From sequence record MT129654.1: a DNA stretch of 64,000 nt, one strand, 5' to 3'. The notes under the pieces are model-generated. The model was not told where the DNA came from, made no database searches, and saw only the letters and a program-made list of their open reading frames with translations. The DNA comes from Escherichia phage MN04. Numbering within the stretch: position 1 is the first letter of the stretch; each line of letters begins with the position of its first letter. The translations under genes and the position numbers were made by a program. This document shows positions 2,369-48,953 of the stretch, piece by piece.

Positions 2369-3118
2369 ATGCCTACTATTAAAACTAACGATGAATTTGA
2401 GTTAAAGGTTTACAACCGCCGCAAACACACCAAAGCTTCTGCTTATAAACGCGGTAAGGACTTCAATCTGTCCAGTAAGTATGTTCGTAGACTTCTCGAA
2501 CAAAAAGTGTGCGCTTATTCAGGCGAGTACTTTGATGAAAATTCAGTTAATGATAAGATTTCATTTGAACGTTTTAACAACGATATCGGTTATATTGAGG
2601 GTAATGTAATCCCAGTTAAAGTTAAGTATAACAGCTTACGTGCCGATTTGTCCCTTGATGAACTGAAACGTGCTCAGACTCGTTTAGCAGTTCGTATTTC
2701 AGGTAGTTCTAAAATGCCTAATAGTTTTAAAGTTACTCCTGATAACTATTATAAAATCCGTAAAATCGTTAAAAATATAAAAGATACCCAAAGAGGTCTT
2801 AAAAAACGTGAAAAACGTCTTAAAGACCTTATTAAATCGGGAGCTACTGATAAGACTCCTTCTGTTATCGCGGTTAAGGCCCGTATCCATGGTTCTAACG
2901 CTTCAATAGGTACTATGGAAAAAGGTCTTAAATCTTTAATTGGTGGGCCTGATTGGCGTGTTAAGTTTAAATTGTCTGAAGCAGAAACGCGTTACGATAT
3001 GTATGATAAAATTATTCAAGGTCTGGAGCGTTTAGAACACCTTTCTTTTATTGACAAATTGAAGTTGAAAAAAGGTCTTCCGCTGAATGCTTCAATTTTT
3101 TCACTGATTAGAGGTTAA
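2369..3118 (+). CDS. srd: Srd-like early protein (by size and position between modA and dda.1)
   Basis: 249 aa, same length class and position as T4 Srd; own early promoter; identity not checked by alignment. Confidence 0.4.
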   Translation: MPTIKTNDEFELKVYNRRKHTKASAYKRGKDFNLSSKYVRRLLEQKVCAYSGEYFDENSVNDKISFERFNNDIGYIEGNVIPVKVKYNSLRADLSLDELKRAQTRLAVRISGSSKMPNSFKVTPDNYYKIRKIVKNIKDTQRGLKKREKRLKDLIKSGATDKTPSVIAVKARIHGSNASIGTMEKGLKSLIGGPDWRVKFKLSEAETRYDMYDKIIQGLERLEHLSFIDKLKLKKGLPLNASIFSLIRG

Positions 3119-3419: not shown

Positions 3420-4747
3420 TTACATTTGAAGACTTGAATATTGGGCAACGGACGGCCTTTAAAGAAATCATTGAAGCTATTAAACGACGTAAGGGCGAAT
3501 GGATTACATTGAATGGTCCTGCTGGTACAGGTAAAACGACCCTTACTAAATTTATCCTTGACCACTTAGTCAAGAATGGCGAACTCGGAGTTATTTTGAC
3601 CGCACCTACACACGCGGCCAAGAAGGTATTGTCGAAACTCGCAGGCCAAGAAGCATCGACAATCCACCGAATCTTAAAGATTAACCCGACTACATACGAA
3701 GACCAGGATATTTTTGAACAACGTGAAGCTCCTGACTTGAGCAAATGTAATGTTCTTGTGGTCGACGAAGGCTCAATGATTGACGGTAAGTTGTTTAAGA
3801 TTATCGAAGCTTCAGTTCCGCCATGGTGCACTGTACTGGGGATTGGCGACCGAGCTCAGTTACAACCTGTAGAACCAGGAAGTGATGGAAGTCCTCAGTT
3901 GTCTCCATTCTTTACCCATCCTAAAATTAAACAGCTACACCTTACTGAAGTAATGCGTAGTAATGCTCCTATCATTGAGGTTGCTACTGAAATCCGTAAT
4001 GGTGGATGGTTCCGAGATTGTATATTCGAAGGTCACGGTGTCCATGGTTTTAAATCTCAAACGGCTTTAAAAGATTTTATGATGAATTATTTTTCCATCG
4101 TAAAAGATGCTGATGCCTTGTTTGAGAACAGGATGTTTGCTTATACAAATAAATCAGTTGAAAAACTGAATAGCATTATTCGTAAAAAGCTTTATGAAAC
4201 CGATACGCCTTATATCAAGGGCGAAATCCTCGTGATGCAAGAGCCTTTTATTAAGGAACTTGAATACGACGGTAAGAAATTCTCTGAAACCATTTTTAAT
4301 AACGGCCAGATGGTTCGTATTTTAGATGTGAACCACACCTCATTGTTCTTGTCTGCCAAGGATGTAGGCACTCGCCAGATGATTAATTACTGGGACCTCC
4401 AGGTTGAATCTGTTGATGAGGATGACGAGTACTATGTAGAACACTTGAAAGTTATTGATGAGGCTTCAGTTGAGAAGTTCCATTATTTCTTGGCTAAGGT
4501 GGCTACTGAGTACAAGGCTATGCGTGGAACAGGTAAGAAACCTAAGTGGGCTGATTTCTGGAAAGCTAAGAGAATGTTCACTAAGGTTCGAGCTCTTCCG
4601 GTGAGCACTGTCCATAAATCACAGGGTCTTACTGTCCAAAACAGTTTCATCTATACTCCGTGCATGCACATGGCAGATGCCAATTTAGCTTCACAGCTGG
4701 CTTATGTTAGTATTACCCGTGCTCGCACTGATGCCTATTATGTTTGA
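3416..4747 (+). CDS. dda: Dda DNA helicase (SF1B)
   Basis: 443 aa; Walker A GPAGTGKTT; long stretches matching T4 Dda as remembered (LTAPTHAAKK, PWCT..GIGD, TPCMH); dda.1-dda-dexA synteny. Confidence 0.95.
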   Translation: MITFEDLNIGQRTAFKEIIEAIKRRKGEWITLNGPAGTGKTTLTKFILDHLVKNGELGVILTAPTHAAKKVLSKLAGQEASTIHRILKINPTTYEDQDIFEQREAPDLSKCNVLVVDEGSMIDGKLFKIIEASVPPWCTVLGIGDRAQLQPVEPGSDGSPQLSPFFTHPKIKQLHLTEVMRSNAPIIEVATEIRNGGWFRDCIFEGHGVHGFKSQTALKDFMMNYFSIVKDADALFENRMFAYTNKSVEKLNSIIRKKLYETDTPYIKGEILVMQEPFIKELEYDGKKFSETIFNNGQMVRILDVNHTSLFLSAKDVGTRQMINYWDLQVESVDEDDEYYVEHLKVIDEASVEKFHYFLAKVATEYKAMRGTGKKPKWADFWKAKRMFTKVRALPVSTVHKSQGLTVQNSFIYTPCMHMADANLASQLAYVSITRARTDAYYV

Positions 4748-16420: not shown

Positions 16421-16645
16421 ATGAAACTTTTTAAAGATATCGCAGTTGGTGAAAAATTTGTCTTAGGTAATGGTCAACAATTGATTCGCATTTCTCCTTT
16501 AATGGATAATAGTGAGCGGCCCATTCGTACTGAAAACTGTTTGGATTATCCTTTTTATCAAAAGCGTTTTGCTATTGAAAATAATACCGAGTGTTTCACG
16601 GTTGATGAACTGATGGAATTATCAGAAGAAGTCGACTCTGAATAA
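16421..16645 (+). CDS. Hypothetical small protein
   Basis: 74-aa ORF from ATG 16421 preceded by ctgaggaaaatattatg. Confidence 0.35.
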   Translation: MKLFKDIAVGEKFVLGNGQQLIRISPLMDNSERPIRTENCLDYPFYQKRFAIENNTECFTVDELMELSEEVDSE

Positions 16646-16659
16646 TTGAGGAAAATATT

Positions 16660-17004
16660 ATGTCTAAAGTATTTTTTGGTAATTCTAAAGTTATGTTCTT
16701 TGAGCAACTCAGTCTTAAAGAGGCATTGGCAGCCTTCAATCAAGAACTGGTTACTGGGTTAGATTCAAAAACTATGGCAAGTGCGGATTTCGTTTTCGTT
16801 CAAGACCCGGATACAGGGTTTTATCGATTCATCAAATTCCGTATGAGCATGGACCCTGACTATCGTAGTGCTTACTATGTGAGTTACGAAAATGTTATCG
16901 AAGAATTACGTGATACCTATGGACGTGCTTTGAACCCACTGAATAAGGTTTATAATGCGTCCTTTTATACGAGCGGATTTATTTTAGAACAGCTACAAAA
17001 ATAG
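16660..17004 (+). CDS. Hypothetical protein
   Basis: 114-aa ORF preceded by ttgaggaaaatattatg. Confidence 0.4.
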   Translation: MSKVFFGNSKVMFFEQLSLKEALAAFNQELVTGLDSKTMASADFVFVQDPDTGFYRFIKFRMSMDPDYRSAYYVSYENVIEELRDTYGRALNPLNKVYNASFYTSGFILEQLQK

Positions 17005-17032
17005 TTTACAACCTCGAGAATCATGTTATAAT
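17004..17032 (+). promoter_or_regulatory. T4-type early promoter
   Basis: GTTTAC 17004-17009, TATAAT 17027-17032 within near-palindrome cgagaatcatgttataatggttctcg. Confidence 0.6.
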
Positions 17033-17081
17033 GGTTCTCGTTGACTGGATAACAAAACATTAATCTACTGAGGAAATTGAT

Positions 17082-17531
17082 ATGAATACTTATATGACTC
17101 GCGGTAACGTTCTGTCTGCTGGTGCTACTACTGTTGCTTATGTTAAGAATGGCGAATACCAAAATGGTAAGCCTTCTAAAGAAATCTCAGCCCAGCCAGG
17201 CTTCTACTTCTTTGTTAAAGGTGAAGCAGATTCTCGTGTCGTAGCCGCTCGCTTTTATGTCGGCAACCAACGTTCAGCTCAAGGTCTTGATGGTATTGTG
17301 GCTAACATTCGTAAGAAACGTTCGCAATCAGCTCGTACTATGGCTGTGAATGGTGTAGTGTATGAAGTTCTTTATGTACCTGCTTCTAAAATGAAACCAC
17401 TGACTACAGGTTTTGGTAAGGGTCAAATTGCAATGGCTTTCACTCGCAACCATAGTTCCGACCTTCAGACCCTGGAAGAAATGAACCGCATGTTGGCTGA
17501 TAACTTTAAATTCGTTCTGCAGGCTTACTAA
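17082..17531 (+). CDS. ndd: Ndd nucleoid disruption protein
   Basis: 149 aa; C-terminal half (FYVGNQRS ... [17 protein letters not shown] ... [20 protein letters not shown]) matches T4 Ndd as remembered. Confidence 0.9.
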
Positions 17532-17608
17532 TGAGCAATTTCCATAACGAACATGTGATGCAGTTCTATCGTAACAATCTTAAAACTAAAGGCGTCTTCG
17601 GACGCTAA
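17531..17608 (+). CDS. stp: Stp peptide (suppressor of three-prime phosphatase; modulator of host PrrC/EcoprrI)
   Basis: 25-codon [28 protein letters not shown], matching the T4 Stp peptide as remembered; start overlaps ndd stop (TAATG). Confidence 0.75.
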
Positions 17609-17618
17609 TGAGGAAAAT

Positions 17619-17780
17619 ATGATTATCCTAGTTTTTATTGAACTTATTATGGCTATGGTTTGTTCAGTTTGCTTCTTTTTAGGTGTATGGACCCCTGGTC
17701 CGGTATTCTTAAGTTTTCTGTTTATTGGCTGGGTTCTTTCTACTTTTGTCGGTTTACTTAAGACGATTAAAAATGATTAA
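17619..17780 (+). CDS. Small membrane protein (Ac-like by position)
   Basis: 53-aa hydrophobic ORF preceded by gaggaaaatatg; position between stp and gene 52 as for T4 ac. Confidence 0.4.
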   Translation: MIILVFIELIMAMVCSVCFFLGVWTPGPVFLSFLFIGWVLSTFVGLLKTIKND

Positions 17781-17917
17781 GAAAATCTTGGGCTACTCGG
17801 TAGCCCTTGCTGCTTTATTGGTAGCACTGTATTATGGAGTAATATTCGGTCTTATCCAAGTTGTGCTTTTTATTTCCGATGTTATTATGGTTATTCATTC
17901 ACTAGTATGGTAAAATT

Positions 17918-19297
17918 ATGGCTGATGTAATTGATACCCTTTTTAAACAATCCTTAGATGTTTACGATGATGCTTTTACTCGTCGTGACTTAAAAAGCAT
18001 TATCGACAATGAAGCGCTGGCTTATGCAATGTATACTGTCGAAAACCGCGCCATTCCAAATATGATTGATGGCTTTAAACCTGTACAACGTTTTGTAGTT
18101 GCTCGTTGTCTTGATATGGCTCGTGGTAATAAAGAAAAATTCCACAAACTAGCTTCTATTGCAGGTGGTGTAGCCGACCTTGGATATCACCACGGTGAAG
18201 GTTCTGCTCAAGAAGCAGGTGCTCTGATGGCTAACACATGGAACAACAACTTCCCACTGTTGGATGGCCAAGGCAACTTTGGTTCTCGATTAGTTCAAAA
18301 GGCTGCAGCCTCTCGTTATATTTTTGCACGAATTGGAACTAATTTCGCAAAGGTTTATAAGGATACAGAATATGCTCCGGTTCATGCGGATGTCGAACAT
18401 AAGCCACCAGCTTTTTATCTGCCTATTATTCCTACTGTTCTTCTTAATGGTATTTCCGGTATTGCGACTGGTTATGCAACTAATATTCTTCCTCATAGTT
18501 TTGATTCTGTTAAGAAAGCTGTATTGCAGGTTCTTCAAGAAAAACGCGTAACCAAGCCTAAGGTGGCTTATCCGGAATTCCGTGGCGATGTGGTTGAGAT
18601 TGAACCAGGTAGTTATGAACTACGAGGCACGTATAAGTTCACATCTCGAACCCAAATGCATATCACAGAAATCCCGTACAAATACGACCGTGAAACGTAC
18701 GTGGCCAAGGTACTGGACCCTTTAGAAGACAAAGGGTATATCACGTATGATGACGACTGTGACGAGAATGGTTTCGGCTTCAAGGTTAAGATTCGTAAAG
18801 AATATGAATTGCCTACTGAAGAAAATAAGAAGCATGAAAAAATCATGAAGGACTTCGGGTTAATCGAACGTCGTTCGCAAAACCTGACCGTCATTAATGA
18901 GAAAGGTAAACTTAAGGTTTACGAAGATGTAGTTGAACTGATTCGTGATTTCGTTGAGGTCCGTAAGACCTTTGTACAAAAACGTATTGATGGTAAAATC
19001 ATCGAAACCGAAGAAGCTTTCAAACTGGCATTGGCTAAAGCTACATTCATTAAAGATGTTATTGATGGTGTGGTGGTTATCCAAGGTAAGACCCGTAAAG
19101 TTTTAACCGAAGAATTGGCCAGCAATAAAGTCTACGGTGAATACGCTGATAAACTCGTAGCAATGAATATTTTCCATATCACGTCCGATGAAGCTAAGAA
19201 ACTGGCTTTGGAAGCCAAGGCTAAGAAAGAAGAGCACCAATACTGGAAAACCACTGATGTTGTAACTGAGTATGTTAAAGATTTGGAGGCTCTATGA
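17918..19297 (+). CDS. 52: DNA topoisomerase II medium subunit (GyrA-like breakage-reunion)
   Basis: 459 aa; N-terminus DLKSIIDNEALAYAMYTVENRAIPNMIDGFKPVQRFV is the gyrase A-type segment remembered from T4 gp52. Confidence 0.9.
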   Translation: MADVIDTLFKQSLDVYDDAFTRRDLKSIIDNEALAYAMYTVENRAIPNMIDGFKPVQRFVVARCLDMARGNKEKFHKLASIAGGVADLGYHHGEGSAQEAGALMANTWNNNFPLLDGQGNFGSRLVQKAAASRYIFARIGTNFAKVYKDTEYAPVHADVEHKPPAFYLPIIPTVLLNGISGIATGYATNILPHSFDSVKKAVLQVLQEKRVTKPKVAYPEFRGDVVEIEPGSYELRGTYKFTSRTQMHITEIPYKYDRETYVAKVLDPLEDKGYITYDDDCDENGFGFKVKIRKEYELPTEENKKHEKIMKDFGLIERRSQNLTVINEKGKLKVYEDVVELIRDFVEVRKTFVQKRIDGKIIETEEAFKLALAKATFIKDVIDGVVVIQGKTRKVLTEELASNKVYGEYADKLVAMNIFHITSDEAKKLALEAKAKKEEHQYWKTTDVVTEYVKDLEAL

Positions 19298-19398
19298 GCC
19301 TTGGAGTCGAGTTCTTGTTACTCTGTATCTTTGCTGTTATCCTAGGCCTGGCGACAGGCTTAGCTATAGGTTTAATAGCAGCCCACTTTAAAAAGTAA

Positions 19399-19420
19399 GG
19401 AACCTTCGGGTTCCTTTTTG
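19399..19420 (+). terminator. Rho-independent terminator
   Basis: ggaaccttcgggttcc hairpin followed by tttttg. Confidence 0.7.
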
Positions 19421-19438
19421 GGTTTAGTGCAAAAAAGT

Positions 19439-19467
19439 GTTTACATCTGCTTTAAACATGATACTAT
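19439..19467 (+). promoter_or_regulatory. T4-type early promoter with overlapping MotA-box-like TGCTTTA (copy 1 of a 56-nt cassette)
   Basis: GTTTAC 19439-19444, tgcttta 19448-19454, TACTAT 19462-19467. Confidence 0.6.
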
Positions 19468-19515
19468 AGACCTATCAAATAAATGAACTGAAACAAACAA
19501 CCCGGAGATACAAAA

Positions 19516-44356: not shown

Positions 44357-44770
44357 ATGAAAGAAATCGCAGATGAATTTAGCTTTATCAAGTACGTTAC
44401 ACTGGAGCTCCAAACAGATGCTACTATAGCCCCTATCACGGTTCCAAACAAACAAAATGTCATATATGCTATAGCGGTTGATGATATACTAGTCTACATC
44501 GGGAAGACTAAAAATCTTCGTAAGCGCATCAACTACTACCGAACAGCTATTAATCGTAAGGACCAAACGTCGGATTCGACCAAGTCCATTCTGATTCATG
44601 AAGCATTAATGGCTGGTAAAAAGGTAGAGTTCTATGCTAGACAGTGCTTTAATCTGTCGATGACTAACGAACTTGGAACTATGTCAGTTGAGACCATGTC
44701 TCTTGAAGAGCCAATGTTCATAAAGAAATTTAATCCACCTTGGAATACCCAACATAGGATAAAGCAATGA
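44357..44770 (+). CDS. denA: Endonuclease II (GIY-YIG family)
   Basis: ATG 44357 (MKEIADEF...); VIYAIAVDDILVYIGKTKNLRKRINYYRTAINRKD GIY-YIG core matching T4 EndoII as remembered. Confidence 0.85.
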   Translation: MKEIADEFSFIKYVTLELQTDATIAPITVPNKQNVIYAIAVDDILVYIGKTKNLRKRINYYRTAINRKDQTSDSTKSILIHEALMAGKKVEFYARQCFNLSMTNELGTMSVETMSLEEPMFIKKFNPPWNTQHRIKQ

Positions 44771-45915
44771 TTGAATTATATGATAACTTGATGACTTTGG
44801 TTAAAAACTCGACTAAATCTAAGTTCTTCTTTAAAGACTTCCAGAGTGCTCTAGGAGTCAACTATCGCATCTTTAGTTATAACTATGCATCGTACAGCGA
44901 TTGGTTGGAAGACGGCGCGCTAGAGTGCCGAGGCATTATGTTTGAAATGGACGAGAACGGTCCTGTACGTATCGCTGCTCGTCCTATGCAAAAGTTCTTT
45001 AATCTCGATGAAAATCCATTGACTATTGGTTTGGATTTATCACAAGAAAATATCGACCTCGTAATGGCTAAGGAAGATGGTTCCTTGATTTCTACTTTCA
45101 TGGACAGACAATATCTTTCTGTTAAATCTAAAGGCTCTATCCATTCGTCGATGGTACATGATTCTTTACGTTTCCTTCGACTCCCTGAAAACGAGGCCTT
45201 CGCTGCTCGTTTAGAAGAAATTACTAAAGCAGGCTATACATGTAACCTCGAGTATGTTTCGCCTACTAACCGTATTGTGCTGGCTTACCAAGAAACAAAC
45301 CTTATCTTACTGAACGTTCGTAATAACGAAACGGGTGAGTATATCCCTTACGCTGAACTGTTTAAAGATGGCGCTCTGCGTAAGCATTTGGTTAAAAGCT
45401 ATGAACTCGCCGAAGGTGATTTTGTTGACAATATCCGTAAACAAGAGGGTATTGAAGGCTTTATCTTTGTACTTAAAGATGGCACGTTCTTTAAACTCAA
45501 AACCGCTTGGTATAGCGCACTGCATCATACCAAAGATTCCATTAACAATAACGAACGTTTATTTGAAGTTGTAGTGGCTGGTGGAACCGATGACCTCCGA
45601 GGTTTGTTCAGCACTGATTCATTTGCTATCGAGAAAATCAATGCATTTGAACGTACCCATTTAGACTACTTAGAACAGTCCTTGGCTTTGTTAGAAGCAG
45701 CATATTCCCAGCTCAAAGGCCGCGACCGTAAAGACTACGCTGTTACTGGTCAGTTAATCCTCAAAGACTTCCCAGGGCTGTTCTCTATTCTTATGCAGGC
45801 GTACGTAGACGGTATTAATTATGATACGGTCGTGGACCAGATTAACTCTGTGTTCTTGAAAAATCATAAGGCCCAAATCCCTGAAAAATATTTGAAAGAA
45901 ATTGTAATAGAGTAG
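44767..45915 (+). CDS. rnlA: RNA ligase 1
   Basis: 382 aa; YRIFSYNYASYSDW, adenylation site KEDGSL; matches T4 gp63 as remembered. Confidence 0.9.
   Translation: MIELYDNLMTLVKNSTKSKFFFKDFQSALGVNYRIFSYNYASYSDWLEDGALECRGIMFEMDENGPVRIAARPMQKFFNLDENPLTIGLDLSQENIDLVMAKEDGSLISTFMDRQYLSVKSKGSIHSSMVHDSLRFLRLPENEAFAARLEEITKAGYTCNLEYVSPTNRIVLAYQETNLILLNVRNNETGEYIPYAELFKDGALRKHLVKSYELAEGDFVDNIRKQEGIEGFIFVLKDGTFFKLKTAWYSALHHTKDSINNNERLFEVVVAGGTDDLRGLFSTDSFAIEKINAFERTHLDYLEQSLALLEAAYSQLKGRDRKDYAVTGQLILKDFPGLFSILMQAYVDGINYDTVVDQINSVFLKNHKAQIPEKYLKEIVIE

Positions 45916-47752: not shown

Positions 47753-48952
<1,200 letters not shown>

Positions 48953-48953
<1 letters not shown>

Follow-up and report, generated by a model that had tools for sequence, protein, structure and literature searches.

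The early operon of Escherichia phage MN04 carries a T4-type Stp peptide and, in the ac position, a predicted membrane peptide of PHROG 9347

Analysis of a 64,000-nucleotide stretch of Escherichia phage MN04 (MT129654.1; the whole stretch is referred to as the window) indicated a standard T-even early operon in its Dhakavirus form, with the gene order ndd-stp-X-52.1-52, in which Stp is of the T4 type and slot X is occupied by a member of PHROG 9347 and not by Ac (probability about 0.88). The operon is compact and of early type, and its tightly packed genes are located on the + strand between 17005 and 19416, as listed below.

17005 to 17032, + strand: sigma-70 promoter-like site of early type (TTTACA, 16-nt spacer, TG-extended TATAAT), upstream of ndd
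17082 to 17531, + strand: ndd, nucleoid disruption protein, 149 aa (PF06591, E = 1.2e-68; 62% identity to T4 Ndd)
17531 to 17608, + strand: stp, 25 aa (PF08133, PHROG 6763, 25/25 identity to T4 Stp residues 1-25)
17591 to 17606, + strand: C(UUCG)G hairpin GGCGUC-UUCG-GACGCU, a putative element spanning the last five codons of stp (21-25) plus one base of its stop codon, the first
17610 to 17613, + strand: Shine-Dalgarno GAGG, separated by 5 nt from the start codon of the 53-aa ORF
17619 to 17780, + strand: predicted two-helix membrane peptide of 53 aa, PHROG 9347, in the ac position (MIILVFIELIMAMVCSVCFFLGVWTPGPVFLSFLFIGWVLSTFVGLLKTIKND)
17773 to 17913, + strand: gene 52.1, 46-aa membrane peptide (91% identity to T4 gp52.1; PF24129 DUF7396, E = 6e-22)
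17918 to 19297, + strand: gene 52, topoisomerase II medium subunit, 459 aa (81% aa identity to T4 gp52)
19397 to 19416, + strand: terminator-like hairpin by consensus match, 8 pairs, UUCG loop followed by a T-run (tail TTTGGGTTTA), after gene 52

The site at 17005-17032 matched the consensus at 11 of 12 positions and was the top site in 16500-19500, a consensus match that makes it a putative promoter. Gene 52.1 starts within the 53-aa ORF, overlapping its 3' end by ATGATTAA, and the counterpart of 17918-19297 is named gene 52 in the JS10 record. Megablast with positions 17000-18000 matched 564 phage records; the best matches were Dhakavirus members, namely NC-G (97.4%), dhabil (97.2%), and JS10 (96.4%), and the window is therefore from a T-even phage of the JS98/JS10 type and not from T4 itself. 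No ORF of note was found in the ORF listing on the minus strand beneath the stp locus. Between the ndd.1 region and ndd, a 114-aa ORF of PHROG 10053 (unknown function; 16660-17004, + strand) was present; T4 has no gene at this position, and the ORF also occurs in VR7 (VR7ORF283c), DK-13, and NC-G. The hairpin at 19397-19416 (AAGGAACC-TTCG-GGTTCCTT) has a T-rich tail on either strand and was terminator-like in both directions.

The stp product was identical to residues 1-25 of the 26-aa T4 Stp (NP_049878). The preliminary description of this DNA had recognized the 25-codon gene as T4 Stp and had called for an alignment, which yielded identity over all 25 residues rather than none. The peptide also scored 72.1 bits (E = 2e-20) for Pfam PF08133 "Anticodon nuclease activator", the curated cut-off of which is 25 bits, and matched PHROG 6763 (E = 1.6e-20); such agreement greatly exceeds what chance would produce. 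The overlap of stp with the ndd stop, described earlier as well, was found to be a single base, the ndd stop TAA occupying 17529-17531 and the stp ATG 17531-17533 (TAATG); in T4, ndd and stp overlap by one base too (ndd 4086-4541 and stp 4006-4086 in the T4 locus L002). Residues 4-14 and the N-proximal 18 residues were intact, and stp directly follows ndd in the T4 gene order. Besides residues 1-25, the place after ndd, and TAATG, the window shares with T4 the hairpin, the downstream linker, and the presence of pseT and rnlA in the genome, whereas its Stp is one residue shorter: in the DNA alignment, the T4 Gln26 codon CAG followed by TGA is here TAA followed by TGA. The 25-aa form was present in the examined Dhakavirus loci (the window, JS10, L007, L008, and L012). 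Searches of the 64-kb window for a second copy of stp or of Ac returned none, with tblastn noise only (best E = 0.37).

The novelty that the preliminary description had implied for stp did not survive comparison with the databases. The gene is already annotated in the GenBank record of Dhakavirus JS10 (ACL78482) and in the RefSeq record of JS98; given the JS10 annotation, there is nothing new in the Stp finding, and its discovery value is small. Stp, the PrrC/EcoprrI logic, and the Pnk/Rnl1 countermeasure are textbook T4 biology and already known.

The restriction systems inhibited by T4 Stp are those of type Ic (EcoprrI, EcoR124I) and not those of type Ia; by this inhibition, Stp unmasks PrrC in prr+ cells, and the damage done by PrrC, a tRNA-Lys anticodon nuclease, is mended by Pnk and Rnl1 (PMC3014915; PMC12707154). 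Both repair genes were located in the window:

44767 to 45915, + strand: rnlA, RNA ligase 1 (sealing enzyme, tRNA repair), 382 aa, match to T4 RNA ligase 1 2c5u
48045 to 48953, + strand: pseT, polynucleotide kinase/3'-phosphatase (healing enzyme), 302 aa, match to T4 polynucleotide kinase 1ltq

The pseT product matched 1ltq over residues 2-302 (E = 1.4e-187), with GCPGSGKS as its P-loop and DVDGT as its phosphatase motif, while the rnlA product matched 2c5u over residues 1-375 (E = 1e-111) and carried the lysine motif KEDGS. The pseT match is of full length, and the matches and motifs support the earlier statement that both genes are intact. The Stp/PrrC/Pnk/Rnl1 logic set out in the preliminary description was supported as well.

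Loss-of-function (suppressor) mutations in T4 Stp cluster in residues 4-14, and removal of the 8 C-terminal codons lowered both activities only moderately (PMC3014915); the loss of Gln26 should therefore be harmless. Because the window Stp is T4 Stp minus its last residue, it should act as T4 Stp does. Its translation is probably coupled to that of ndd through the TAATG overlap. Judged from sequence identity, Stp would be expressed and active in MN04, where it would bind type Ic restriction complexes, EcoprrI and EcoR124I among them, and inhibit them; when the host is prr+, the PrrC tRNA-Lys anticodon nuclease would be unmasked by this action, and the cuts would then be repaired by the phage Pnk and Rnl1. 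The prediction for prr+ hosts is that MN04 triggers PrrC and needs pseT and rnlA. A phage-encoded tRNA-Lys was considered as another counter to PrrC and discarded, the 64-kb window containing zero tRNA genes.

The ORF that follows stp was assigned to PHROG 9347 by a match over its full length (E = 8.1e-26, residues 1-53 of 53). T4 Ac (NP_049877, 51 aa; MNIAKLLGVISFICWIVACVLTICIDASSVFSQALAQGMCAYLTFVLLSND) belongs to PHROG 2501 (E = 2e-25). In the comparison with T4 Ac for which the preliminary description had asked, BLASTP gave no alignment at E <= 100. A global alignment of the two peptides scored z = 1.2 against shuffles, and the 49-aa Ac homologue of related phages scored a marginal z = 2.2 against the 53-aa ORF; as yardsticks from real relatives, T4 Ac against the 49-aa homologue gave z = 5.6, and the 53-aa ORF paired with its 54-aa homologue from a Gaprivervirus gave z = 7.3. 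Comparison of small family alignments of Ac and the 53-aa ORF by hhalign returned a probability of 0.6%, with shallow profiles (Neff about 1.9). Pfam and NCBIfam searches gave no support for remote homology to Ac, and tblastn with the 49-aa Ac homologue found no sequences bridging the two.

The two families also occur together, and this was the strongest evidence for keeping them apart. JS98 (L006), IME281 (L005), and NC-G (L022) carry both a 49-aa Ac homologue (PHROG 2501, E = 4e-20) and the 53-aa ORF, and in EcS1 the Ac family and the PHROG 9347 family stand side by side. This co-occurrence demonstrates that they are two distinct genes, and since relatives hold an Ac homologue beside the 53-aa ORF, the shared position does not imply orthology. 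The 53-aa ORF as an Ac homologue was accordingly rejected on the different PHROGs, the co-occurrence, and the negative BLASTP, hhalign, and shuffle comparisons; small room is left for remote homology between two very short hydrophobic peptides.

The 53-aa ORF is nonetheless like T4 Ac in several respects: the slot from stp to 52.1, the length (53 vs. 51 aa), a predicted two-helix membrane hairpin, and a C-terminal ND* that overlaps the 52.1 start. It differs in having no sequence similarity to Ac in the BLASTP, hhalign, and shuffle comparisons, in its PHROG, and in coexisting with true Ac homologues in related phages. AlphaFold2 (single sequence) placed helices at residues 2-22 and 26-52 (pLDDT 84.9), and the model and the hydropathy profile agree in describing a small two-helix membrane peptide, which would insert in the inner membrane as a hairpin. 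The term "Ac-like" used in the preliminary description therefore holds for position, size, and hydrophobic two-helix architecture, and fails as a statement of homology. The right label is "PHROG 9347 membrane peptide in the ac slot", and the name Ac should not be given to this ORF in Dhakaviruses of this type.

Could the 53-aa peptide still be a highly diverged orthologue or a functional equivalent of Ac, raising intracellular acridine, for example by interfering with AcrAB-TolC? The shared slot and similar lengths would suit this idea, as would the predicted fold: the ESMfold model reported for Ac is also a two-helix hairpin, and Ac has been proposed to block AcrAB-TolC (preprint 10.1101/2025.06.30.662393). 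The common ND* C-terminus, forced by the ATGATTAA overlap with 52.1, fits as well. The absence of detectable similarity and the different PHROGs count against it, the presence of both genes in JS98, IME281, NC-G, and EcS1 rules out orthology, and the sharp break in DNA homology between flanks of 88-98% identity fits replacement and not gradual divergence. We regard the proposal as rather improbable. A broader proposal is that the stp-to-52.1 interval is a dedicated slot in which T-even genera swap non-homologous two-helix peptides (PHROG 2501 and 9347, with PHROG 5941 upstream of stp) at short conserved linkers, the PHROG 9347 peptide being an inhibitor of a host membrane machine in parallel to Ac. 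The swap linker at one end would be the stp hairpin together with TGAGGAAAATATG, that at the other end would be ATGATTAAGAAA, and an efflux pump or a membrane-bound defence would be candidate targets. Taken as a whole, this proposal is speculative and unlikely. Under the preferred assignment, a PHROG 9347 gene distinct from Ac, and with no Ac homologue seen in the 64-kb window, natural acriflavine resistance is predicted, unless the PHROG 9347 peptide is a functional analogue or an Ac homologue is encoded elsewhere in the genome.

Within PHROG 9347, the 53-aa ORF is an ordinary member, comparable to dhabil_51 ("putative membrane protein") and VR7ORF281c. Full-length relatives were found in 88 phage records; PHROG 9347 relatives of 53-55 aa have F6, I7, L9, G22, V23, P26, and F33 in common with it, and in all examined loci having one, the PHROG 9347 peptide was directly upstream of 52.1. 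An inverted repeat within the gene (TGGACC-CCT-GGTCCG, 17688-17702, + strand) encodes the WTPGP turn of the peptide and scored as terminator-like; the WTPGP motif is not kept in the 54-55-aa homologues, and the repeat is therefore probably due to chance.

DNA identity to T4 changed abruptly along the interval. It was 88-98% across the 3' end of ndd and stp (about 17470-17625), 47-68% over the body of the 53-aa ORF, and again 92% in the bin 17781-17840, just past the 52.1 start, while ndd and gene 52 overall had just 64-75% nucleotide identity to T4 (L002). The near-identical islands at about 17470-17625 and 17770-17900 flank a non-homologous cassette, which is a signature of modular exchange between T-even genera. 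In slot X, the PHROG 9347 gene would have taken the place of Ac through an exchange of this kind at linkers that are conserved.

In a set of 20 related loci, the interval from ndd to 52.1 was a mosaic, and its part from stp to 52.1 is a hotspot for the swapping of cassettes. Two Stp alleles were present (stpA and stpB), one of them the T4 type; a 57-59-aa membrane ORF (PHROG 5941) was optional before stp in some loci; and stp was followed by Ac, by a PHROG 9347 peptide, or by both. The window represents the simple form, with a single stp and then a single PHROG 9347 gene. In L009 (IMGVR_UViG_2706795356_000001), a T-even relative with an 82% identical ndd, no ATG-started stp ORF of at least 20 codons was found in 1918-2440, and the order was ndd, a 59-aa membrane ORF, a 54-aa membrane ORF, and 52.1.

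The stp gene was nearly identical to that of T4 at the nucleotide level. Codons identical to T4 made up 21 of the 23 informative codons in stp, compared with 44% in ndd, 53% in gene 52, and 74% in 52.1, and the binomial P for the excess was 1e-4 at a background of 0.53 and 0.04 at the 52.1 level of 0.74. Recent exchange of a small island between genera is the simplest reading of this near-identity. With 21/23 codons the same, the pair of window and T4 cannot show selection on the peptide.

The hairpin at 17591-17606, four bases before the GAGG of the next gene, had a local fold of about -9 kcal/mol. The 121-nt fold around stp was not unusual (z = -0.86), so that only the local hairpin stood out and a stable extended RNA structure around stp was not supported. 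The Dhakavirus stop arises by a C-to-T change, through which the closing G-C pair becomes G.U, and the hairpin was kept in T-even stpA and stpB alleles with wobble-only changes (GGUGUC; a G.U closing pair; a UUUG loop). In the compared loci, hairpin-bearing stp copies were followed by the linker TGAGGAAAA(T/C)ATG; in SfPhi01 (L021), where the C-terminus of Stp is replaced, TGAGGAGAATATTATG stands in place of the linker. These observations are suggestive of a function for the hairpin, but conservation of the GVFGR peptide is a confounding factor. Read on the minus strand, the stp hairpin is followed by CTTTAGTTTT and scored as terminator-like.

Such data might be read to mean that what keeps the stp nucleotides conserved is an RNA or DNA element, either the C(UUCG)G hairpin by the downstream ribosome-binding site or a recombination linker, for which the ORF is only a carrier in MN04. 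The codon excess over ndd and gene 52, the synonymous changes that leave the hairpin paired, solely as wobble pairs, in both allele types, and the linker that accompanies hairpin-bearing copies are the points in its favor. The excess, however, is only P = 0.04 against the level of 52.1, so that it can be accounted for just as well by the entire island having been exchanged horizontally in recent times; none of the alleles compared had a compensatory change in the stem; an Rfam search over 16500-18500 found no known RNA family at E <= 1; and the z-score of the 121-nt fold argues in the same direction. Moreover, in T1-like homologues, which lack the hairpin, the peptide core persists despite many synonymous changes, and the Drexlerviridae homologue in L003 keeps GVFGK without any hairpin. 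We consider it highly improbable that the ORF is a mere carrier, and the reading of stp as a gene for a T4-type Stp peptide, which no observation contradicted, is retained.

The T1-like homologues are Stp-like peptides of about 26-30 aa with the core [FW]HNEH[VI]MQ[FW][YH]R, found in T1-like (Drexlerviridae) and Skatevirus siphoviruses (TLS, Stevie; loci L003, L004, and L023-L025) and mostly unannotated, at the following positions:

L003, 2483-2575: Stp-like peptide
L004, 2501-2581: Stp-like peptide
L023, about 3001-3081: Stp-like peptide
L024, about 3001-3084: Stp-like peptide
L025, about 3001-3081: Stp-like peptide

Compared with the window over the 10-residue core, two of the T1-like homologues differed by 7 synonymous and 0 nonsynonymous codon changes, which shows purifying selection on the Stp peptide itself. 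A polynucleotide kinase gene lies 0.5-2.2 kb downstream of the Stp-like peptide in three Drexlerviridae loci (L004, L023, and L025). The core motif, the length, and the nearby kinase gene are thus shared with MN04, whereas the C-terminal half differs in most of these peptides, the hairpin is absent from all of them, and they stand in another genomic context. Novelty was considered for Stp-like peptides beside Pnk genes in T1-like phages and dismissed, since the announcement of the Stevie genome had previously noted such a peptide (PMC4319613).

As the preliminary description had pointed out, stp (25 aa) and the next ORF (53 aa) both fall below 60 aa and are of a kind that short-ORF filters miss. 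Database records agreed: of 29 sampled T-even records, 18 lacked a separate feature for stp, the record of the close relative dhabil lacked one too, and the 53-aa ORF was not annotated in JS10. The Stp-like peptides likewise had no feature in the four annotated siphovirus records (4/4), the L003 record carrying no annotation. Since annotations often omit stp and the small genes next to it, surveys that ask which phages have this anti-restriction trigger should rely on translated searches.

A tandem arrangement was observed in IME281 (L005, 2170-2340), JS98 (L006, 2338-2508), and NC-G (L022, 1420-1560), with the order stpB, 49-aa Ac homologue, 52.1-stpA fusion, 53-aa ORF, and 52.1. In these three phages, a piece of 52.1 runs into a second stpA copy that has no start, with GAGTAAT, a microhomology common to 52.1 and stp, at the junction. 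In NC-G, an extra deletion has produced an open 52.1-stp fusion of 35 aa.
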